Assembly (NCBI GenBank): GCA_051047955.1
Contig: JBPGPT010000023.1
Location: forward strand, 186,001 to 250,000
DNA: 64,000 bases
Origin: Cystobasidiomycetes sp. EMM_F5
Lineage: Eukaryota
Direction: 5' to 3'
Position numbers and translations under genes: made by a program. Under the pieces are notes generated by a model, which saw only the letters and a program-made list of their open reading frames with translations, searched no databases and was not told the DNA's origin. Positions within the stretch are counted from its first letter, which is position 1; each line of letters begins with the position of its first letter. Shown here piece after piece: positions 17,601 through 45,597 of this stretch.

Positions 17601-18910
17601 ATGGCCAGTCCAAACCGACGAGCGCACCATGCTTCAGCCCATGTTGGATCAGCTAGCACTCATGGCGCGGCTTCACAGGCCAACGCAGACTTGTTCAGGT
17701 CACTCGTATGGGACGGCTACGTCAATCTGAGTGTATGCATAGCGAGCAGTGACCTGACCGCTGGAAGCGATAGAAGCACAAACACGCTGTATGTGCGTGT
17801 CATTGCACATGCAATGCACAACGGGGGTAACAGCGTGATTTGGCTGAGACGGCTTGCGCGACATCCTAGATCCGTCCTCCAAGAATATCGTATCTCTCAC
17901 TGCTGATACCCGAGATTCGACGGACACTGCTGGAGATTGTGCTGGATGAGAATGCTCTTGCTGTGCTACGACCTGAGCAGATATGGTTTGACTGCGAAGG
18001 CGAGCCTTTGAAATGGTATGTCAAGACTCGAGCGAATAACGCATGTGGTCCATGCTGACGCTGTACGCCTGCAGGCACTGGCCAATAGGATTGATACACG
18101 ATTATCTTCGAGCAAACAACGTTCAACTCTCCACTTCTTCCGATCCTCCCAAGTCATACTTTCCCCCTGTCGCGTCCTCGTCTTTGACGAGAGCGGATCC
18201 GCAATTCTCGCAGCCACTTAGGATTACTATACACCTTTCCAACCCACCTTCCGACAAGCTCCTGTCATCCAATAGCATCGACGCTTGCCGGGCTAGCTTT
18301 ATGAACTTGGTAAAGGAAGCCGATGTCGTGCGATGGGGTTCAGTCAAACGCGTCACTGCACTTCGCAAGGTAGACCAAGATGCACTGTGGGAGGGTGTTG
18401 TAGCTCGTAAGCCTTTGCATGAAATTCGCCAATCACAATGCTTGAGCTGACGAGTATCAAACAGACGACTATGACAAATACTGGGCTGTCGCAAGCAAAC
18501 TAGTCCCCTCACCAGGCACTCGCACAGCATCACGAGTCACATCACCACCAATGACGACGGTCTCGTCGCTGGACGCTGGTATGCAGCTGCCGGACGCGGC
18601 AAATCAGCGATCAATCCCAATACGGGTCTACCTGCCACATGGTGGACCCGTAGTGCAAGACATCGTCCCAGCCGTGCATGCTGATGGAGTACAGACGCTA
18701 CAATCGGCTTTATCTTCCATGGTACCTGCTTTGTTTGGCAGCATTCCAGTTGGACAGGACATGACTGCGAGTTTTATCGCGTCTCGCAAGAAGCTGGTCA
18801 AGAGAGTCATTGTTCAGGGCATAGATCTGCCGTTGGATGCAGAACTGCCATGGTGCTCAACCTGCTTATGTTATCCGGATGGCTGGTTGAGCGTCGTTTT
18901 GGCTTTCTGA
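17601..18910 (+). CDS. ATG5: Autophagy protein 5, multi-exon
   Basis: FRSLVWDG, PRISYL, WFDCEGEPLKW|HWPIGLIHD, FMNLVKEADVVRWGSVKRVTALRK, IPIRVYLP, YPDGWLSVV. Confidence 0.95.
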
Positions 18911-19064: not shown

Positions 19065-20221
19065 CTACGTATCCATGATTACAGCTTTTGCTCTGTTGAA
19101 TATAACGTCTACATTGTCCGTACGCTTCTTGGTGGAGTCGTCCAACTGTGCCGAAATCACAAGTCAGTCGGAACAAGCAATCAAGTCACGAGAGACAGCG
19201 AATGTCATAGCTTACGTGTTTAGCGTCCTTGCGAGCATCCCCTTCACCGACGACCTTGTTTTCTTGATCTGTTTTCAAGTCCTTTTGACCTTCGTTCCGC
19301 ACAGCGCGTATCGCGACTCTGGCACTCTCCGCTAGTCTCGAAGCTGCCTTCGTTAAATTCCAGCGCGTGTCTAGATCGGGACTGCAGAGAAGTGCAATCC
19401 GGGAAGGACATAAGGCATTGGTGTATCGTGTCAGGGCAGAACGCATGTAGCCTCTTATTGACGTAGTAACGTACCGTGGAACTGGCACTCGCAGAGTCAT
19501 TTCGTCAACACGCTGAGGGTTCAGACCGAGGTCTACCGTTTCTTGAATTGCCTTTTCCACTGCTTTGACGCTCTGAAAGTTTGGCTATTAGCATAAAAGA
19601 AACGTATCAACTCTTCTACCCAAAGGTGGGCACGCACAGCTGGGTCGAAGATATTGACCATGAGTGCTTCCGCACCAGAGACAGATACTGTTGCGTACTG
19701 CTGTAGCGGATGTCGCTCTCCATGATCCAGCACACGTACGGCATCCAGCAAAGCTATATGAGGTAGCGGTGTGAAATAGATTTCGTTTATATCCGGGTTA
19801 TAAGCGCACCTGGAGACAGACGCCCCACTCTGCCGACGAGCAACTTCATATCTCTCTGCAGCTTTTCCACTGCGGCATCCATACTCTGCTCGAGCTTGTC
19901 TAGGTCGAACTGCTCGAGGGCGTCTTCGGGCGTCATTTCTGCTGCCCTTGCCTTTTTCCCTTTGGCAAGCACGGGCACTGGATGCGATTCGACGCGGATC
20001 TCGTCGTCGTCTTCCTCACTACTGCGTTTCTGTGACGAGGTCTTCATTGTAGATTTGCTCGTCTTCTTCTTGGACGCATATCTGACTTGCAGTCTTGAAC
20101 AGCACTGCGGACACGGCCATACCGCGGCAGACGTCGAAGCAGCCGCGTTCACCAACGGGGCAGCCGCACTTGGTCGCGCATACCTCAGCGCTTGCCTGGC
20201 TGCGAGCCTGATTACCGACAT
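19065..20221 (-). CDS. RRF1: Mitochondrial ribosome recycling factor
   Basis: Arg/Ala-rich presequence; VGRLSP|ALLDAVRV, LMVNIFDP, LGLNPQ, LRVPVP, AESARVAIRAVR. Confidence 0.85.
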
Positions 20222-20292: not shown

Positions 20293-21976
20293 ATGACTGG
20301 CCACTCCCTGTCGGATCGCTTACTGCAGGCTCTGCTGACTATACACCAGACGCCGCCGAGGCTGCTCGCTGCTCCTCCAGTCAGTCGCACCGGTGTGACA
20401 GCCAAATCCAAGAGAGCCAGTGTCGCAATTAGTAGGGTATCATTTCGTTAGGGCCATTGTTTATCCAGCTGACATGCTCTGTGCTTTTGTAGTCCTGCGA
20501 GTGAGGCCAACGCCGTCTTACCCCTCAACAGCAGACTATGATGCTGGCTTTCCAAATTCCTCTCCTATCCGGTCTCGCGCACAGTCGGTAGCGTCTATAG
20601 ACACAGAGTCTGGTAACCTCTCTGCTACTTCACATCGAATTCTGGACTTCTTCGCCCAGCCATGGGTACAGTCTGGAATACCCGAGATACTCTATATCAA
20701 GCGCGCAACACGCGCTAGCGATAGGTGGTCTGCGCAGGTTGCGTTCCCAGGCGGGAGGCAAGAGCTAGATGACGAAAATCCACTCTACACGGCCATGCGC
20801 GAGACTTGGGAAGAAGTCGGCATCGATCTAGCCGAGAAAAAGGATTTTGTCGAGGTTGGCCAACTCGATGACCGGGAAATCACGACGAGTCTGGGCAAAC
20901 GTCTGCTAATGGTACTCAGTCCGTTTGGTGCGTTCAAATCAAATTTGTAACTTGGTACGCAGTGAAGCTGAAAAAAGTCACATTTCGGCAGTCTTTCTGC
21001 ATACATCACCCCAAGCGCCTGTCCCTGAGATACAAGCAAGCGAGGTCGCTTCGGCACACTGGGTACCTCTGACTTGTTGTAAGCGGTGTATTCCTGTTGT
21101 ATGCTGGTGCTGACAGCACAACGTGCAGTACTCGCTCCGCATGTTCGCTGGGGAGACGTCAGAATAGACATCATGTCTCGTATCATGCCAAAAAATAGCA
21201 TCTTATGCCGCTTCCTCACTCTTCTCACTGGAAACATGCACTTCAAGTAGGGCATCTGATTTCTCGAGCAGGCGAACATGTCTGATCTCTCTACTTTTAG
21301 ATCCATCCTTCTACCAAATGATCCTGTTACACCACTTCAAGCCGAAAATGAGAAGAGCCTAGACCCAGCTGCCACATTTGCCGAACGTCTGCCACTATCG
21401 CTGTGGGGTCTTACGCTTGGTATGTCGCTCGACTTGTTGTCTCATATGGAATTGCCCGAAAGCAGTGAGATCAGCAGAGTCATTGCGGCCGATAAATTGT
21501 ACGCTAGCTCACCAAGCGAGCCACTATACGACATGTCGGCGCCACAGACGCCGCATAGCGCGTTTCCCCTCTTGCTTGCCCCTTCGATGACTAGCATCTT
21601 TCCTACGTTCTCCTACCCAGACATTAATCTCTTCATCTGGATGTTTGGGTTCCGCTACCGGCATCTCGTCAGGAGATGGGGCGAGCGGTTCAAAACGAGC
21701 TCCTCGGGATCTACAACACCTGCAATCCCACATCTGCGCCGCCGAGCTTCATCAGCTGCTGGCTTGCCGGCTACGCCTGGCGCTGCGGCTTCTCCGCATG
21801 GCGGACGCGTAAACTTTGCAGGCATGGCGCTGAATCAGTTCTATGCTGCAGTACGAAGAGCATTGATCGTGGCTGTGGTGGCACGCGCTGTGCTCTTGCT
21901 AGGTAGTACGACAGCCGCGACTCTATGGCTAATTCGCAAGTTACGTGACCGCAGAAAGCGCCTTCATTCATCCTAG
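20293..21976 (+). CDS. Nudix hydrolase (CoA-pyrophosphatase-like) with predicted C-terminal membrane anchor
   Basis: EILYIKRA...DRWSAQVAFPGGRQELDDENPLYTAMRETWEEVGIDL (Nudix box), LWGLT motif, hydrophobic C-terminal segment followed by basic tail. Confidence 0.88.
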
Positions 21977-22214: not shown

Positions 22215-23574
22215 ATGGCGGATTATAGCAATACTAACTGGTCTGGGCAGCAGGCAGAGTCGGGAGACTATCTGGGCGCCAACTACGCGTACGGCACCAA
22301 TGACCAAGAGGACGACGACCCAAACGGGCCAAGGGTCATTCGTGACACATGCATCTTCATCGACCATACAATGACGCTGCTGGGCTTTCAGCAATTCGCC
22401 AGAGATCGCCAGCTTCCAAAAACGGCGAGGCTCGACTTTGAAGCGTTGTTGCACTTTCTCGAGAGTTCGACGACTGATCTCCTGAATGTGACTGTCCGGC
22501 ATCTGGCAGCCAGTCCGCCGTTGGACGAACAGGATGCCGAAGATTTAGCAGTGTGTATCGGCAATCCGAGCAGGTTAATTGTATCGCCATTTGAGCTGAA
22601 TGTAGTCGGGATGACAGGCTGCCGACTATACGGTTCATCTGCTGGAGCGTATTATTCAACGCAAAAACCAACGGATCTTGACTCGCGAGTAGGTGCTCTC
22701 AATGTCAAGCCAAGCCTGAGTTTTCGAGTGACGACTCTCCTAGACAATGCGTTGCAGAAGTGCTCGCATTGCAGATTGCGACAACGTTGCTGGAAATGCC
22801 GGCGGAGAAATTGCCCAAGTATGCAACTTGGCCTCCGAGGATCGTGCTCGTCACAGGAGACGGCGGCCATCTCGAGTACCTTCGTGGCGGATTTACGAGG
22901 TACGAGGCTGGGTCACCCGTGATGTCCACGCCATTAGAATGTCTGAGCAATCTCTTGTCAGAATCATTCATTCCGCACTCCACAAAGGGTTTCCTGTGGC
23001 GGTATGGTCGTTTCGAGGCGCCAGAAGCGATCGTTGGATTAGGCTGTACAGCGACATTGTCGAGGATGCCAAGAAAGGTATGAAGGTCGGGCAGCTGCAT
23101 CTACTGGATCTCGACACATTCGCCAATGTCTTCGTAGCCGGAGTGAAGAATATCCAAGAATACCTACCGCCGCCTCCCCCTCCGAAAAAGAAGAAGAAGA
23201 AGGCTGGCGGATGGGGCACCAGTGGTACAGCTGATCCTGACTGGGGCAAACCGACGGCGGCAAACGATGCCTGGGGAACGCAAGGAGGAACAAACGCTGG
23301 CGAGAGCGCCAAGACAGATGATGCAGCTTGGGGAAAGAATGCATCCCCTTCGACCAAACTGGACAAGGTGGAGAGTGGCTGGGGTCAGTCATCTCCGAAA
23401 ACACCCAAAGACTCCAAGGCAAAGACCACCGGCTGGAGCTCAACGACGTCTCCAAAGACACCGAAAGATCCGCCCGCATCTACTACCGGCTTTGCAATCA
23501 CGCCAGCTGGCGGACAAGAGACAGCCGTAGCAGAGGAATCCAAGATCACAGAGGTGGACGATGACTGGAAATGA
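22215..23574 (+). CDS. NYN/PIN LabA-like domain protein with C-terminal WG/GW-repeat tail; join(22215-22550,22618-22688,22744-22899,22962-23574), 391 aa
   Basis: Three GT-AG introns give an unbroken frame: CIFIDHT...RLDFEALLHFLE...RHLAASPPL...DYTVHLLERI...EQCVAEVLALQI...IVLVTGDG..EY..GF..IIHSALHKGFPVAVWSF...LDLDTF, matching the order of fungal NYN/LabA-like motifs; tail has six W-G/G-W motifs. Confidence 0.75.
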
Positions 23575-23621: not shown

Positions 23622-25418
23622 CTACTCTACTGTGGTCTCGGATTCCACCTGGACTCGAATACCATACATCGTTTCGCCTTTGGCAGGATTTTCGATTTCT
23701 GGAGCGTCGCGAGTGTTCCAGCGCACTAGCTCAGCTGGAGATATGGGAACTACCGCGCTGGAAGGTGGGGCATCATATTTGCTCGACGATGATTCTGGTT
23801 GGTATGACGATGCGATAGACACGCTGGACTCGTTGACATTGAGAAGGTGCGGTTCGAGCTGCTTCTGTAATCTACGTGGTCAGTGTAGAAGACTACGACG
23901 GGTTGTTCTGCGCCTCACAAGCTGCAGGCTGATATTCGATCGCATTTGTTCTGACTTGGACGACCTCGACGCTAGAGGTGGTATTTGTAAGGTAGGGACC
24001 TGAGGATGCTTCTGTGCCAGCAGCATCTGATCCTTCTTCAGACTGCGTATAGCTTGAGAGTGGGACAGATCGAAATTATCGACAACTCGGAAAGAAGCCG
24101 TCTGCAATGTCCCAGACATTCGTTGAGGCGAACGAGCAGTGTTAAACGCTGTATCTGTCAGGCGATTGTGGGAAGCAGCACTCTGCCGCAAGCAATAGCA
24201 AAAGCTTAGTAGATAGAGGCTTGGTATAGCAGCTGACGATTTGCCGATGAATTAGGCATACTCCCAAGAGCATCGACGTGCTGACGCTGACGTACCGGCA
24301 GAAGCATTAAACATCTGCAGCGGAGATAAAGTAAGCTGCGGCCAGGACCATCGAGCAAAGTCTGAGGGCCTACATTCCATAAGGTGGCCGTCTGAAAAGT
24401 CGATGCATACGAGACGGCAGTAAACATGGTGAAGAACAGCGGAACTGCACAGGTTCCAAACGCCAGCTTGATGAGGGCAGAAATAAACTCATCCGTGCTG
24501 AAGAGCGCCTCAAATTAAGCCCGGATGGCGTGTGACAATTGAGAGCCTACCTCCTGTTAAAGCCACGCTTCATTTTCCGTAACGACCAACTCAGGAGAAG
24601 CGTCAAGGCGATATCCGTGACAACTGCCGACCAAAGCCAAAGCTCTGTTGGAGCCAGCAGCTGTTATGCGCGGGCGACAATCAGCTCAATGCGCCAAGAG
24701 GCAGACTACCGAAGCGTCCTGATACTTACGGCTTCCGGTCCGGTCACATTCTGCATATACTGGACTGTTGAGGTTCCAGCTCAGGGCAACCATCAATTTT
24801 CGCTACGCGGCTGACTCACAATTACAGTAAGTAAGCCAGACAGCACCAGCCAGACTGGATGCGATACCAACGCCAAGGACGGGCGACACCAGCACAGCCT
24901 TTTGTGACACCTTTGCGCAACGGATAGCCATGAATGTCTGGCATGCGCTAGCTGTGAGACCTTGAAAGAGTGGAGCGATGACATCCGCCAGGATATAAGC
25001 ATCTAATTTCGCAGTAGATCGATCCTGGTCGAGCATGTAGCTCCATATTTCCTGAAAGCAGGGAAAGAGACAGACGCTTTTTCAGCATTCATCATTGAAA
25101 AGACGCGAAACTCAGCTACCGCAGTGCTGACACCAATGCTGGCAAGATTGAGTGTCGTCGAAATCCATAGCAGTGGCCGTGAATATCTTCCGACCTTCGC
25201 GTTCTTGTTCAGGAGCAAAGACCCAGCCATAGCGGTTGCCATACCACCCAGGAAGACTTGTAGGATCCTGAGATTGTAGGGAGCATTAGATGTGGGGATG
25301 AAGAAACCCAAAGGAGATAGATCGCATACCATCCAATTACACATGGTCCTAAGATAACGTTTGCAACATCTTGTGGCGCACTGGGTGTCAACAGGTCATC
25401 GCCAGCAGTATCGGCCAT
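23622..25418 (-). CDS. Multi-pass integral membrane protein (DUF6534-like basidiomycete family), multi-exon
   Basis: Several hydrophobic exons (LQVFLGGMATAMAGSLLL, LLWISTTLNLASIGVSTA, WSAVVTDIALTLLLSWSLRKMKRGFN, ISALIKLAFGTCAVPLFFTMFTAV) and a polar C-terminal tail. Confidence 0.65.
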
Positions 25419-38443: not shown

Positions 38444-41400
38444 ATGGCCAACAGCCCGCCAGCAGGTGCTCAGAACGGGCAGTCTCTGCTGCCAGGCCAC
38501 GAGCCATCAGCGCCAGGCTATCCTGGCTCGTCGGCGCACGAGTTGGGAGTTCAGCAACAGCTGCAATCGTCGTCGCAATTCATCAACAACAACAATAATC
38601 ACAACGGCTACAATGGCGTATTCCAGCCCGCTGGCCAAGCTATGGCTGCCGGGAGTCCTACGGCGGGTGCAGGATCCCCGTCTGCGTTTGCGAATGGAAA
38701 CATGCAGCAGCAGCAGCAGCAGCAGCAGTATGCAGGACAGTCTGCAAACAACGGGTGGCCTACTCTGCCCCCAGGTCTCGACAGAGAAAAGGTGCTAGCC
38801 CTCAGCCAGGTGGGTGGTATTTTCATCTGACAATGACAACGCGAAAGGCTGATGCTTGTCGTAACTGATTGTGGATTGTGAATATTGCAACAATCTACTG
38901 CCAATGCTCGTCATTCAGCGTCATCAACAACTCCGCGCAGCAGGCTTCACCGACCAGACTAGTCCCGAACTAGCCGCAATATCCGCTACCCTCACACAAA
39001 TGCAAAAGCACATTGCGCGCTTAAAGGTGATGCAACAGCAAGCCTTTGCTGCTCAGCAGCAGCAGCAGTTACAACAGCAGCAGCAACAACAGTCGTCTGG
39101 TGTTGCGCTTCCGCAAAGGACGGCCAGCGCAGGTGAGACACCCTCGTTTCAGCCAGGACCAGCGTGTAAGTGCCTTCGCCGTAATTCATAGCCGTGATAA
39201 GCTAAACCTCCATGATTCCTAGCTAATGGAGTCGCAAACGAACTCTCCCAGAATGGATCACAAACCGCTGGTACGCCAGGCAATAATATTGCCGACGGGA
39301 GTGTGTCCGGGACCGCCGTGAGCGCCTCAACGCCATCAGAAGTGCAACAAGCGGCAATGTCACCCAGTGCACCGCCTCAGCATCAGCAGCATGTTGTTAT
39401 GACTGCTCAACAGAGTGCAGCATTCAAAGCGCAAATATATGCCTTGCGTTTCCTCCAAAAGGGCGCGCCAATACCACCGCAGATTGCAATACAACTGTTT
39501 GGATCGACTACTTCATCTGGTACCTCGAGTCCTGCTGCTATAACGCCAGGCTCTGCTCCTGGTCTGAGGTCTGACACGCCAAAACAAGCGATAAAGACGG
39601 AGGACGGTCAATCTGGTGTAAATGGCTCAGTCGATCTAGCTGACCCAGCTACTTTGCAAGAAGGACGCACATCTCCCAGTAAACCGCAAGACAATACTTC
39701 GACAGTCGCTGTACCTGTACAATCTACATCGGCGGCAATTGTCGAGCCAGAAGTGCAGGTTGTCATCGAAGACGCACCACAAATCTCGGCGGAACTGGCA
39801 CCGTACAATTATTATCGCCATCCTCGCTCTGTTCTCGCAGCTCTGCGGGCAAACATGCAGGCCGTCAACCGTGTCGAAAACTTTGGCAAGAGTCCGCACG
39901 TGCCAAGCTTGCTACCAGCTGGGCTCGATGCTCACACATTGCAACAGGAGAGGAACCGCTTCATTGAAGCTCGGCTCGCGCAGCGAAAGCGGGAATTGGA
40001 GAATCTGCCCAGTCTCTTGGGTGAAGGTCCAATACAGGATGTATCCGACGACCAGTCTGCCAGCCAAAAGATCAAGGCGTTGATTGAGCTCAAGTCGCTC
40101 AATCTCCTCCAGCGGCAACGTACGCTGCGCGAAGACGTTGTTCGAGGACTCAACCAAGCCTTCTCGCTAAATATCGTAACGGATCGGCAAGCCTACCGCG
40201 CAAATCGAAAGATTACGCTCAAAGATGCTAGAATGGTTGATCAGCTTGAAAGGCAGCAGAAGGTAGACCGCGAGAACCGGGCCAAACAAAAGCACGTTGA
40301 TCAGCTCAATGCCATTGCCAAGCATGGAAGGGCGATGCAAGAAGCGCATGATGCAGAGAGAGCGAGACATGTGCGGCTCGGTAGAAATATCCTGCGATGG
40401 CACGTCGAGGCGGAGAAGGAGGAGCAGAAGCGTATCGAGCGAGTGTCCAAAGAACGCCTCAAGGCTCTGCGCAATAATGACGAGGAAGCTTACCTCAAGC
40501 TCATCGATACGGCGAAAGATACGCGTATCACCCATCTCCTCCGACAGACCGACTCCTTCCTCGATTCTCTTGCTCAAGCTGTTGCAGCACAGCAAGAGGA
40601 AGCCACCGATCGAGATGGATCGACTATGCCATACAATGTTGCTCAGCCTACTGATGATGGAACATTCGACGAGTCGGCCTTTGGGGCCCGTGCAGTGTTT
40701 GCCGAGGAGCCTACAGAGCAAGGCAAAGTGGACTACTACAATGTTGCGCACAAGATCAAGGAAACAATATCAGCACAGCCAAATATTCTCGTTGGTGGTA
40801 AATTGAAGGATTACCAAATCAAAGGCTTGCAGTGGATGATATCGCTGTTTAATAATCGCCTGAATGGTATTCTAGCAGATGAAATGGTAGGTGGCAGCTT
40901 ATACCTCCATTGCCTTTCTCGCTAACACGTAAAACAAGGGTTTGGGAAAGACTATCCAGACCATTTCACTCATTACATATCTCATTGAGAGCAAGCGGCA
41001 AGCTGGACCTTTCCTTGTTATTGTGCCGCTGTCGACACTGCCAAATTGGACATTGGAGTTCGCCAAGTGGGCGCCTAGCGTCAGCGTCGTGCTATACAAG
41101 GGCTCGCCGCCGATACGCAAGAGTGTTCAAGGACGGATGCGATCTGAGCATTTCCAGGTCGTTCTCACAACGTATGAATACATCATCAAGGATCGGCCTT
41201 TCCTCTGTCGCTACAAATGGATACATATGATTATTGACGAAGGTCATCGCATGAAGAATGCCAATTCGAAACTCTCTCAAACTCTTACACAGTACTACTC
41301 CTCACGCTATCGCCTTATTCTCACCGGAACACCCTTGCAGAATAATCTACCCGAGCTATGGGCTCTCCTTAATTTCGTGTTACCGAAGGTCTTCAACTCG

Positions 41401-43561
41401 CAGAAGTCATTTGACGAATGGTTCAACACACCGTTTGCGAATACGGGTGGACAGGACAAGATTGATATCAACGAAGAAGAGGCTCTCCTTATCATCAGAC
41501 GTCTACACAAGGTTCTTCGACCTTTCTTGCTTCGACGACTGAAGAAGGACGTCGAGTCTGAACTTCCCGACAAAGTGGAAAGGCTTATACGCTGCAAGAT
41601 GTCTGCATTGCAAACAAAGCTGTACAAGAAGATGAAGGAGTCTGGTATGCTCATCACCAACGATGCCAAGAATGGTAAATCGATGGGCATGAAAGGTCTG
41701 CAAAATACCATTATGCAACTGCGTAAAATCTGCAATCATCCTTTCGTGTTTCAGCCAGTAGAAGACCTCATCAATCCCGCTGGATCTACCAATGCTCTAC
41801 TGTACAGAGTGGCAGGCAAATTCGAGCTGCTGGACCGCATCTTACCAAAGCTCTTCTGCACTGGCCATCGGGTCCTCATGTTCTTCCAAATGACGGAGAT
41901 TATGAGTAAGTGGTTCCGCATCAGATTGTGAACATCACGAGCTGACTCTGCCTCGCCAGACATCATGGAGGATTACCTGCGGTATCGAAACACGCTGTTT
42001 CTGCGTCTGGACGGATCTACCAAGCCAGACGAGCGGTCCGATATGCTGACCCAATTCAATGCTCCCAACTCTCCTTATATGATCTTTTTGCTCTCGACTC
42101 GTGCAGGTGGCCTCGGCTTGAACTTGCAGACGGCCGACACGGTCATTATTTACGATTCAGACTGGAACCCACATCAGGATCTGCAAGCGCAAGATCGTGC
42201 GCATCGTATAGGCCAAAAGAAAGAAGTCCGGATTTTCCGATTGGTCACGGAAAAGAGTATCGAAGAGCAGATCCTAGCGAGAGCGAGGCAGAAGCTCGAG
42301 ATTGACAAGAAGGTCATTCAGGGTGGTCGCTTCGATAACAAGTCTTCAGCTGCTGAGCGAGAGGATTTCCTGCGAGCGATTCTGGAAAACAACGATGATG
42401 AGGACGAAGACTCTGCTGACCTGGGCGATGAAGAATTGAATGATATTTTGGCGCGCAGCGAGGAAGAGTCTGAACTCTTCACCAGGATGGACTTTGAGCG
42501 TGTGCGCAACGAGGATCAAATGTGGCTACGTGCTGGTCATCATCTCCCGGCGCCGGAGAGACTCATCACTGATTCAGAGCTACCGGATGTATACCACATC
42601 GAGCATCAGCTAGCACCGGTCGTCGACGAAGTACTGGATCGACGACGCATAAAGAACCCTATTCATTACGACGATGGTTTGACTGAAGAGCAGTGGACTC
42701 AGGCGATCGAAGACGAAGAGGACATGAGCACCGTCATCGAAAGAAATCGTCGTGGTAGACCTTATCTCGTGGACGACGATCAGGCGTCGTCGCTAGGTGT
42801 AAGCGGCGAATGGGAGTCTGAGATGGGCTCCCCTGGTCCTGGTGGGAAAAAGAGGAAACGAGCCACAGCCAGTGCTAGTCGAGCGACATCTGTCGATGTC
42901 ATGTCCCTCAACGGAGACGTCAAGGGAGCTGTACGTCTTGCAATCTTGACCACGGGGCAGGCTATTCAAATGTACGAGGCTGATCAGTTTCCCTCGCAGC
43001 CCAAGCGGAGAAAGACGGGTAAAGCATCTCTGGCCGAAGATCCAGAACACGTCCGAATGAAGGAAATAATGGAAGCTGGTCTGGAGGCCATTGAAAACAC
43101 TGACAATGAAGAATTCGGACATCAATGTGCCGGACTCTTCTACAAGCTCCCTTCGAAGAAGGACTATCCAGAGTATTGTAGGCATGATGCAATCTGTCCA
43201 CCTGATATTTGACTGACGGTATCACCCATACAGATATCATAATTCAGAAACCGATATGTCTTGATCAAATCACCAAGAAGGTCAAGGCCTGGAAGTGTAA
43301 GCTTGAGGGGCACATAGCATAATTCTTCAGCTGACACCTTGAACTACAGACGACTCACTTGAAGAGTATCGAGACGATGTCATGCTCATGTTCAACAATG
43401 CTCGAACCTACAACGAAGAAGGCAGCGTTGTCTGGAAGGACGCCAATTCTATGCAAAAGGCATTCTTCGACAAGATTGCGGAGATGGTCAACCCCAGCGA
43501 CAGCGTTCCGGACTCGCGGGTGCCTGTGGTGAAGCGGATTCCAGAGTCGGATGAAGAGTAG
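38444..43561 (+). CDS. Snf2/Sth1-family chromatin-remodelling ATPase (QLQ, HSA, SNF2_N, helicase C, SnAC, bromodomain)
   Basis: [11 protein letters not shown] (QLQ), [20 protein letters not shown] (post-HSA), [45 protein letters not shown], bromodomain [14 protein letters not shown]. Confidence 0.96.
38705..38728 (+). repeat. (CAG)8 microsatellite encoding polyQ in the Snf2/Sth1 N-terminus
   Basis: Eight perfect CAG units; an imperfect CAG/CAA run follows near 39054-39092. Confidence 0.9.
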
Positions 43562-43794: not shown

Positions 43795-45597
43795 ATGCTG
43801 CAAGCTACTCGCAGGTCTGGCAGCTCGCGATGGTTAAGTGTCCTGCCTGAAAGAAGGCTGCCCGTCCATCGATGCACCTGTGCTTTTTCGTCGAGCTGCA
43901 AAATTGTGCATGAAGCGTAAGCGGAGATCTTACAGTCGAGTATGGCTGAAGCTTGTCTGACTGCTGATTCCCAATCCTGGTCCGGATCGAGCAGTCCGCA
44001 GCTATCCATCGGTGCCCAATATGCCAGACTTTTCGACGCATTGGCTGTAACTCCCAAACAGTCGAAATCCACAGGACAGGCTGATGGTGCAACACAACGC
44101 ACTGCAAGGCTCGAACCAAGACCCTACGGTCCTTCATTCTCGGCAGACGTGTATCATAGACCGCCCACGCAGGGTAGAATCCGACCGTCGCAAAAGCAGA
44201 CCCTTTACGACTCTGATGACCGCGAGACGGCCAAAGATGTCATGGACAGCTTCTGGCGAGATAGACGCGAGTATACGGAATCGTATGACTCAGATACCGA
44301 TGTGCAAGCATCACAAGGTCCAGCTATTCCTTGGGCAAAATTGCTTGATGCGGCCGCGGCTCAGTCATACAAGCCGCCAATTGATGACAATCTCGATGTG
44401 ATGGGCATGCAAGATACCGACGCGTTATCTCAAGTGGCCGTTGAGGAGCCAACCTCCTTCGAGACGCAGCTATCGGCGGAAAGAGATCTTGTCGAGCAAA
44501 GAGAAGCAGAAGCTTTGGGTGATGTGGACCAGCTGCGGGAGGAAGTCAAGGAACTGTCGTCGGTGAAAGAGATACTGGAATGGATGGGAGATCGAATCTT
44601 TTCGCTAACAAATCCGGAATCACTCATCAACAAGATTGATCAAGTCGAGGACGTGCCGAGTCCGAAGCTGGTCAAGCTCTATCCATACCTATTGGCCGAG
44701 ATTATCGACATGTTACGGCCGATATCGCCTCATGCTGCCCTTATACCGCTGCGACAGGCATCTAAGCATTCCGCAAAGTCTTACTTGTATGGCTGCGATA
44801 CCGCAGTCTACAATGCTACCATGAAAGTATACTGGGAACAATGGGGAGATGTAGAAGGTTGCTTGAGCCTACTGGAGGAGATGGAGAGGGGCGGCGTTTC
44901 AATCGGCTCGTCCATTGCGACCTTGACTACTCAGATCAGCGACGCCCTTGCTGCGGATGTGCTAAATGCACGACAAGCTGCGCAAGCAGGATTGGATCGA
45001 GACTCTGACGATGCAAATGAGGGCCCTCGTACTCATTCACACAAGCTTGAGCACCCATCAGCGGGAGACAGATCTGCGCGGCAAAGATCTCATGAATCGG
45101 AGCTGGAATACCTCGCAGAAAGCAAGATGTTCTTCGATAGGCTACAACGCCGAGCAGGCCACAAGATCGATAGGCTCATCACTGCTCAGCGACAGCGGGC
45201 TGCAGAGTATTTGCAAAAGGCGAACGTGGTATCGGACATGTATCGGGAGTCGGACAATAAAGGCGACCCTCGATCGCACGTCAATCAGCTCATCGATGCA
45301 TACGGCAGCATGCCCCGTCCGTCTCGCAATGCTTCTTTTGCAGGACGATATGCCCCTGTTGAAGGAGGTGCGGTCCAGTCACGCAATGCCCCACAAGACT
45401 CGCTTCTACCTGCCGCGTTGCCGTCGGACGAGGCCAACATTGTTCGAGAAGATACGGAAGCTTTGCAATCGTCACCAATGGAAGAAGTCCCAGACATTTT
45501 GGCAATGGCTATCAACGAAGTTGCAGCGGCACCACCTCCCGTACGACGGCGAGCAAGGCGCAGGAACTCGAAGAAAGCCGCAACGGCTCCCAAATGA
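43795..45597 (+). CDS. Mitochondrial Mtf2-like (PPR-like) protein
   Basis: Presequence-like exon 1 (MLQATRRSGSSRW...), intron from 43918; YPYLLAEII...PHAAL...SAKSYLYGCDTAVYN...W...D...LLEEMERGGV resembles the fungal Mtf2 C-terminal domain. Confidence 0.65.

Follow-up and report, generated by a model that had tools for sequence, protein, structure and literature searches.

Does the basidiomycete Cystobasidiomycetes sp. EMM_F5 encode a protein in which a nuclease-like domain is joined to a tail able to dock on the RNA-silencing machinery? The question is raised by a locus at positions 22215 to 23574 of the stretch analyzed here, which comprises 64,000 nucleotides of contig JBPGPT010000023.1 (forward strand, positions 186,001 to 250,000) and is referred to below as the window. 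An earlier reading made from the letters alone, here called the sequence-only reading, had proposed a four-exon gene whose product combines an N-terminal NYN/LabA-like domain, a linker, and a tail with tryptophan-glycine (WG) and glycine-tryptophan (GW) motifs, and had suggested that this product could couple an RNase fold of the PIN family to Argonaute. In the list of open reading frames (ORFs), the locus is never covered by one single ORF. When GT..AG pairs were enumerated by script and four exons were joined, a plus-strand coding sequence of 1176 nucleotides was obtained, consisting of 391 codons followed by TGA, with no internal stop codon. Our tentative answer is that the encoded protein may be an adaptor, in which a degenerate NYN-like module is combined with a tryptophan-motif tail whose docking partner would be a tryptophan-pocket protein from the machinery of RNA silencing or decay; we regard this as possible and fall short of calling it probable.

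The tryptophan-glycine tail

Residues 258 to 391 contain five WG and three GW dipeptides. The seven tryptophans of the tail lie at residues 272, 282, 292, 311, 328, 346, and 390 (spacings of 10, 10, 19, 17, 18, and 44); five of the seven are followed by glycine, and six touch a glycine. One motif is GW only, and the last tryptophan stands in Asp-Asp-Asp-Trp-Lys. When the tail was shuffled with its composition preserved, five or more WG dipeptides arose in 23 of 100,000 shuffles, six tryptophans adjoining glycine in 51 of 100,000, and a minimum tryptophan spacing of at least 10 in 2408 of 100,000. Among the six-frame ORFs of at least 60 amino acids in the window (n = 531; 56,722 amino acids, with 905 tryptophans and 31 WG dipeptides), only that of the model has more than two WG per 134 amino acids. 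The enrichment is therefore beyond chance, and both the Pro6-Lys6 linker and the exact tryptophan motifs are as the sequence-only reading described them.

The glycine codons that follow tryptophan vary (GGC, GGC, GGA, GGA, and GGT), and no DNA-level repeat was found in the tail except a (GAA)6 run. Because the codons differ and a DNA-level repeat is absent, the WG motif is maintained as protein sequence. The heptapeptide SPKTPKD behaves similarly: its two copies have different codons at four of seven positions, all synonymously, which argues for a maintained peptide pattern rather than a recent duplication.

The most frequent residues between positions 258 and 391 are lysine (14%), threonine (13%), alanine (12%), glycine (12%), proline (11%), serine (10%), and aspartate (8%), with tryptophan at 5%. 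Asparagine contributes 2%, leucine and isoleucine together 2%, and the set ILVFMYC 5%; methionine, tyrosine, and cysteine are absent. On this composition, the tail is predicted to be disordered. According to the available part of a published survey, WG/GW domains favor tryptophan, glycine, asparagine, serine, alanine, and aspartate and disfavor leucine, isoleucine, methionine, tyrosine, and cysteine (PMC2910046). Set beside that table, the tail is poor in the five disfavored residues and rich in glycine, alanine, serine, and aspartate, as described there.

These features invite comparison with Argonaute-hook proteins such as GW182/TNRC6, plant NRPE1 and SPT5L, and Cryptococcus Gwo1 and Gwc1. 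Like them, the model protein has several WG/GW motifs within a hydrophobic-poor stretch that contains glycine, serine, alanine, and aspartate and is predicted to be disordered. It differs in having just six motifs in ~120 residues, in a context rich in lysine, threonine, and proline. Beyond their GW region, members of the GW182/TNRC6 family have a UBA domain, a Q-rich region, an RRM, and a silencing domain. The model protein does not show this domain set: no Pfam family matched exon 4, where the tail is encoded in full, and 391 amino acids are too short to accommodate it. There is precedent for such interactions in basidiomycetes, as Cryptococcus Ago1 binds Gwo1 ("GW182-like") and Gwc1 ("GW/WG protein") in the available text of two reports (PMC6643885, PMC4778953). 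Human AGO2 has three evenly spaced tryptophan pockets, as stated in the accessible part of PMC12477606. Argonaute is not the only conceivable partner, since the W-motifs of GW182 also recruit CCR4-NOT, to go by titles cited in PMC6294520.

Several points weigh against a dedicated docking tail. The tryptophan-pocket residues of fungal Argonautes are variable (PMC12477606, in the part available), the richness in lysine, threonine, and proline is atypical of the plant WG/GW table, and glycine-rich low-complexity stretches are described in the same partial source as giving WG/GW false positives (PMC2910046). An alternative explanation is that the tail is generically disordered and has no dedicated tryptophan-pocket partner. 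Its lysine run would then be a nuclear localization signal, its serine/threonine-proline sites would be phosphorylated, and its tryptophans would be "stickers" that favor condensates or make weak contacts with RNA, with the NYN-like domain acting alone in an RNA-related housekeeping or lineage-specific role. Neither the K/T/P/S-rich composition nor the SPKTPKD repeats are hook specific, the warnings about low-complexity false positives apply here, and the last tryptophan lies in a differing, acidic context. However, five of the seven tryptophans are followed by glycine even though the glycine codons are varied and a DNA repeat is absent, and for this reason selection seems to have acted on the WG dipeptide and not on composition alone. 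We consider a generic tail unlikely, if still a serious competitor of the docking tail that we prefer.

Two further observations concern the ends of the tail. The lysine run of the linker may resemble a nuclear localization signal. At the extreme C terminus (23554 to 23574), the context of Asp-Asp-Asp-Trp-Lys is unlike that of the WG motifs; an acidic stretch with a C-terminal tryptophan is presumably similar to the acidic motifs found in activators of Arp2/3 and to certain motifs that bind adaptors. The last tryptophan may perhaps serve a partner other than that of the WG motifs.

Evidence for a NYN/LabA-like domain and its catalytic positions

The N-terminal part of the protein was compared with a profile of reference NYN domains. 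These were collected by searching PF01936 in bacterial genomes, with matches in 4/5, 27/61, and 45/61 genomes. Of the 68 PF01936 loci fetched, 67 were used, and one (L179), which was cut, was left out; the frame check of the references involved 96 candidate ORFs and 63 seeds and kept 67. Against the cleaned 67-domain profile, hmmsearch ranked the spliced residues 1 to 262 first of 1003 sequences at 7.0 bits, above the best of 1000 shuffles (4.2) and above the reversed sequence. With hhalign, residues 39 to 216 were aligned to positions 6 to 153 of the 171-position profile in 143 collinear columns (score, 37.4; P = 1.4e-5; probability, 80%), compared with a mean score of 13.0 (standard deviation, 2.5; maximum, 19.9) for 80 shuffles.

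Each half of the domain also matched the corresponding half of the profile independently. The N-terminal half (residues 36 to 135 against profile positions 6 to 44) scored 20.3, with a maximum of 16.6 in 40 shuffles, and the C-terminal half (residues 136 to 262 against positions 112 to 153) scored 37.1, with a maximum of 16.9 in 40 shuffles. When the reference set was split in two, the same C-terminal block was recovered both times, with scores of 35.9 and 31.2. Control comparisons gave 16.3 for a PIN profile (PF01850; 21/24 loci usable), 14.4 for a receiver-domain profile (30/30 loci), 12.4 for the reversed query, and 7.9 for the tail against the NYN profile.

With the NYN/LabA-like family (PF01936, e.g., human MARF1), the model protein shares collinear profile similarity over ~145 positions, a first strand with aspartate, an S/T-G-D motif on a hydrophobic strand, the phenylalanine that follows it, and a G..V.V strand. 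It differs from the family in an 8-residue insertion within the S-G-D-x-D-F motif and from MARF1 in being without RRM or LOTUS domains. We conclude that a NYN/LabA-like domain is likely present.

A number of results count against this assignment. Scanned singly, the four exons (112, 23, 51, and 203 amino acids) matched no Pfam family at E ≤ 10, and sequence searches of the PDB returned no match for the exon 1 profile or for the first 75 amino acids of exon 4; exon 3 matched designed armadillo proteins, repeatedly and weakly (E ≥ 0.19), and these matches were rejected as noise. A HMMER search with exon 1 against 1,835,955,588 representative proteins (E ≤ 0.001) had no annotated NYN protein among its matches. 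With our first NYN profile, into which wrong-frame ORFs had strayed, the model reached rank 19 of 1003 (1.5 bits); the frame-checked set took the place of that profile. A single block of ~50 residues (167 to 216) accounts for most of the hhalign signal, and the middle of the domain (residues 86 to 166) has no independent support. The domain call of the sequence-only reading is thus upheld by directed profile comparison, although not by single-exon Pfam or PDB sequence searches.

In searches of the ESM Atlas, a NYN cluster was returned for exon 1 at rank 8 with a score of 0.82, which is below 0.9 and constitutes a weak, independent lead only, and for exon 4, recognition was below threshold and gave no lead. 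Structure prediction for exon 1 alone with a 2-row alignment was unusable (mean predicted local distance difference test score, 44.1). The clusters ranked first for exon 1 were those of bacterial DUF6621 (PF20326; scores of 0.88, 0.87, and 0.84), ahead of the NYN cluster. No DUF6621 reference sequence was found in 5 genomes and a 151-genome sample of one bacterial phylum (one genome, G126, being in both), and this family was set aside.

Catalytic positions were mapped from the hhalign alignment, and conservation was counted over the 67 bacterial references. Profile D17 (65/67) corresponds to D50 and is kept. The S118-G119-D120 motif (63, 57, and 67 of 67) corresponds to T173-G174-D175, in which the aspartate is kept, and F123 corresponds to F186. 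Elsewhere, N20 (64/67) is replaced by M53, K91 (63/67) by Q137, D95 (67/67) by A144, D101 (57/67) by T150, and D122 (64/67), past the 8-residue insertion, by G185. Accordingly, two of the four near-invariant acidic positions are retained (D50 and D175), short of the four acidic residues of an active NYN site, and because of this, RNase activity is doubtful. The placement of D95 and D101 in the alignment is uncertain, as residues 86 to 166 lack independent support. E141 sits three residues from the D95 position and could be a substitute acidic residue, should the weakly supported middle of the alignment be out of register.

In the available text of PMC6294520, the NYN active site of human MARF1 consists of four aspartates (D358, D426, D427, and D452), and mutating two of them strongly cuts activity. 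MARF1 is an active endoribonuclease there, with a C-terminal motif that binds the decapping complex, whereas the SMG5 PIN domain, which is without those residues, is inactive (PMC6294520). For the model protein, we rate a degenerate, binding-only domain above a working RNase, which seems less likely, with the alignment being uncertain. As to the "PIN-family RNase fold" put forward in the sequence-only reading, the NYN/LabA-like call is supported by profile similarity, while the RNase step is weakened by A144 and G185 at two acidic positions.

SMG5 provides a parallel, in that its PIN domain has a PIN-superfamily fold without the acidic active-site set and belongs to an RNA-decay context (PMC6294520, in the part available); for the model protein, the corresponding state is deduced from its sequence. 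The two differ in that the SMG5 domain is of the PIN and not the NYN subfamily, and no sequence relation between them was shown. SMG5 presumably carries a 14-3-3-like domain and not a WG tail. A NYN/Zc3h12a-type nuclease, RDE-8, acts in RNA interference (RNAi) in Caenorhabditis elegans; to our knowledge, it has no GW tail.

The residues just described bear most directly on the idea of a catalytically active endoribonuclease of the NYN type that a GW/WG hook ties to Argonaute and that acts in fungal RNAi as an effector nuclease. The NYN-like profile similarity, the retained D50 and D175, and E141 as a possible third acidic residue would fit such an enzyme. So would six tryptophans that adjoin glycine, the first three of them at intervals of exactly 10 residues, next to the evenly spaced pockets of AGO2 and the binding of GW proteins by Cryptococcus Ago1 cited above. 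However, two of the four near-invariant aspartates and the asparagine of the first motif are replaced, the pockets of fungal Argonautes are variable, and a Pfam scan of 82 window ORFs revealed no Argonaute, with families for Piwi, PAZ, Dicer, and RdRP all absent from its matches. We regard an active, Argonaute-tethered nuclease as improbable. Improbable, too, is an as yet undescribed kind of fungal small-RNA factor, namely, a pseudo-nuclease (or an atypical nuclease) of the NYN type that is specific to its lineage and attaches to Argonaute via a short C-terminal WG hook. Such a protein would tie PIN-superfamily RNA recognition directly to the RNA-induced silencing complex, and a role in genome defense would agree with how fast it evolves.

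The adaptor that we tentatively prefer would be built from the same parts. Residues ~39 to 216 would form a NYN/LabA-like domain, highly divergent and probably no longer active as a nuclease, whose role would be to bind RNA or protein. The Pro6-Lys6 linker may act as a nuclear localization signal. In the disordered tail, tryptophans spaced 10 to 19 residues apart and flanked by glycine or small polar residues would be short linear docking motifs, whose likely target would be a tryptophan-pocket protein, either the PIWI domain of Argonaute or CCR4-NOT. The adaptor would in this way deliver the NYN-like module, together with the RNA it binds, to the machinery of silencing or decay. As a role in silencing, this idea is reasonable and unproven.

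Gene model, homologs, and neighborhood

The arguments above depend on the spliced model, which was examined by codon usage, contig coverage, and homology. A codon-usage score, for which eight window ORFs that match Pfam families strongly were the training set, ranked the model frame first of six frames in each of five coding segments; in the tail, the model frame scored 0.264 bits per codon versus at most 0.079 in the other frames. With an open frame, three GT-AG introns, and the best codon score in all segments, the four-exon, 391-residue gene proposed in the sequence-only reading holds, including its not being visible as one ORF.

Three short DNA-like contigs from run X1 cover 22217 to 22471, 22604 to 22841, and 23686 to 23836 and leave the tail uncovered; one of the three crosses intron 2 unspliced. 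A low-depth X1 contig differs from the window by G>A at 22402, which changes Arg63 to Lys, and by a synonymous T>G at 22415. These differences suggest a close strain or relative in run X1. Separately, exon 4 contains a good donor (AAG/GTATGA) and acceptor (TCGTAG) 60 nucleotides apart, at 23078 to 23137. A possible alternative in-frame intron at this place would drop 20 residues just past the NYN-like core; the domain alignment and the tail are both independent of it.

The HMMER search with exon 1 retrieved 5 proteins, namely, the window's own ORF, three repetitive proteins, and P0002. The latter, of 147 amino acids, is the one real homolog (E = 8.7e-19; 49% identity across residues 26 to 111). 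It is an ORF-style fragment from another unannotated contig and covers exon 1 alone. P0002 begins at the start methionine of the model, and its similarity stops exactly at the donor of intron 1, with unrelated sequence beyond; because the methionine is shared and the similarity ends where intron 1 starts, the start codon and the first donor are supported. P0003 to P0005 were judged spurious as homologs, being internally repetitive and matched in 7 to 8 stretches. Word-index protein searches with exons 1 and 4 found nothing beyond the window's own ORFs (P0001 and P0006), and a scan of metagenome loci with the exon 1 alignment gave 143 pattern matches, none of which was confirmed. As sampled by these searches, the family shows itself to be very narrow.

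Two side observations concern P0002. At the position of Arg63, where the low-depth X1 contig encodes lysine, P0002 likewise has lysine. The N-terminal low-complexity region of the model (22215 to 22330) has a tryptophan at residue 9 in a polar context, and the equivalent region of P0002 (residues 1 to 40) has two tryptophans. Tryptophan motifs may perhaps not be confined to the C-terminal tail.

That the model is wrong or the locus nonfunctional (a pseudogene, another splicing pattern, or an untranslated tail) is very improbable, for although the contigs over the locus are all DNA-like, an in-frame alternative intron is possible, and only one partial homolog was found among 1.84 billion representatives, it takes three canonical introns to open the 391-codon frame, the codon score is best in the model frame in every segment, P0002 shares 49% identity over exon 1 as well as the start and end of that exon, and the SPKTPKD copies diverge synonymously only. 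On these grounds, we take the locus to be a real, lineage-restricted fungal gene.

The surroundings of the gene (Table 1) are unexceptional, the 82 scanned window ORFs being ordinary housekeeping genes. They include an RRM protein, the AP sigma chain, ATG5, ribosome recycling factor (RRF), NUDIX, WDR3/Utp12, and PPTA, and further a Snf2-type remodeler, Mtf2, Cdc6/ORC, uL4, acyl-CoA oxidase, RPC5, and CLU/eIF3-p135. Such a gene content, together with introns this short, is in keeping with a fungal source, as are the Snf2/Sth1-type remodeler and the Mtf2 family gene.

Table 1. Features of the NYN-like gene and selected neighbors, in window coordinates
Feature	Position	Strand	Residues	Remarks
Exon 1	22215..22550	+	1-112	Low-complexity N terminus, then start of NYN-like domain (first strand, D50)
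Intron 1	22551..22617	+		67 nt; donor GTGTGT, acceptor CAG; read-through shifts the frame
Exon 2	22618..22688	+	113-135 + 2 nt	
Intron 2	22689..22743	+		55 nt; donor GTAGGT, acceptor TAG
Exon 3	22744..22899	+	136-187 + 2 nt	Middle of NYN-like domain; VLVTGDG motif, then 8-residue insertion
Intron 3	22900..22961	+		62 nt; donor GTACGA, acceptor CAG
Exon 4	22962..23574	+	188-391 + stop	End of NYN-like domain, short extension, Pro6-Lys6 linker, WG tail
NYN/LabA-like domain (likely)	22329..23046	+	39-216 once spliced	Three introns inside the span; hhalign
Pro6-Lys6 linker	23167..23202	+	257-268	
(GAA)6	23184-23202	+		Tandem Repeats Finder; lysine run
Low-complexity tail	23203..23571	+	269-391	K/T/A/G/P/S/D-rich, 5% hydrophobic
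Tail Trp codon starts	23212, 23242, 23272, 23329, 23380, 23434, 23566	+		
Heptapeptide SPKTPKD, two copies	within 23392..23469	+	332-338, 351-357	Each 4-5 residues past GW
ATG5 (HBR + UblB domains)	18040-18907	+		Two ORF pieces; upstream; Pfam
Ribosome recycling factor	19189-19584	-		Upstream; Pfam
NUDIX hydrolase	20399-20947	+		Upstream; Pfam
238-aa ORF	21260-21973			No Pfam family; directly upstream of the NYN-like gene
Snf2/Sth1-type chromatin remodeler	39216-43212	+		At least 3 ORF pieces; QLQ, HSA, SNF2-related, Helicase_C, SnAC
Mtf2 family gene	43921-45594			Pfam

Possible meaning for fungal RNA silencing

A fusion of a NYN domain with an Argonaute hook or GW/WG tail was not found in the open-access literature searched. 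In its available text, the MARF1 paper mentions GW182 as a control only and no fusion (PMC6294520). We therefore rate the pairing of a NYN-like domain with a WG tail as one not met in that literature, with parts that are each of known kinds.

What Argonaute does is decided by the GW proteins that bind it as adaptors, and few of these have been described in fungi. At present, the adaptor proposed here is a hypothesis on one fungal gene, resting on one partial homolog. A PIN-superfamily fold and a WG tail in one small protein would make it a compact and testable candidate for a new effector, or a new regulator, of mRNA decay or RNA silencing in fungi. Should the domain be catalytically dead, the protein would be a further case, comparable to the PIN domain of SMG5, in which a nuclease fold has been co-opted to serve as an adaptor.

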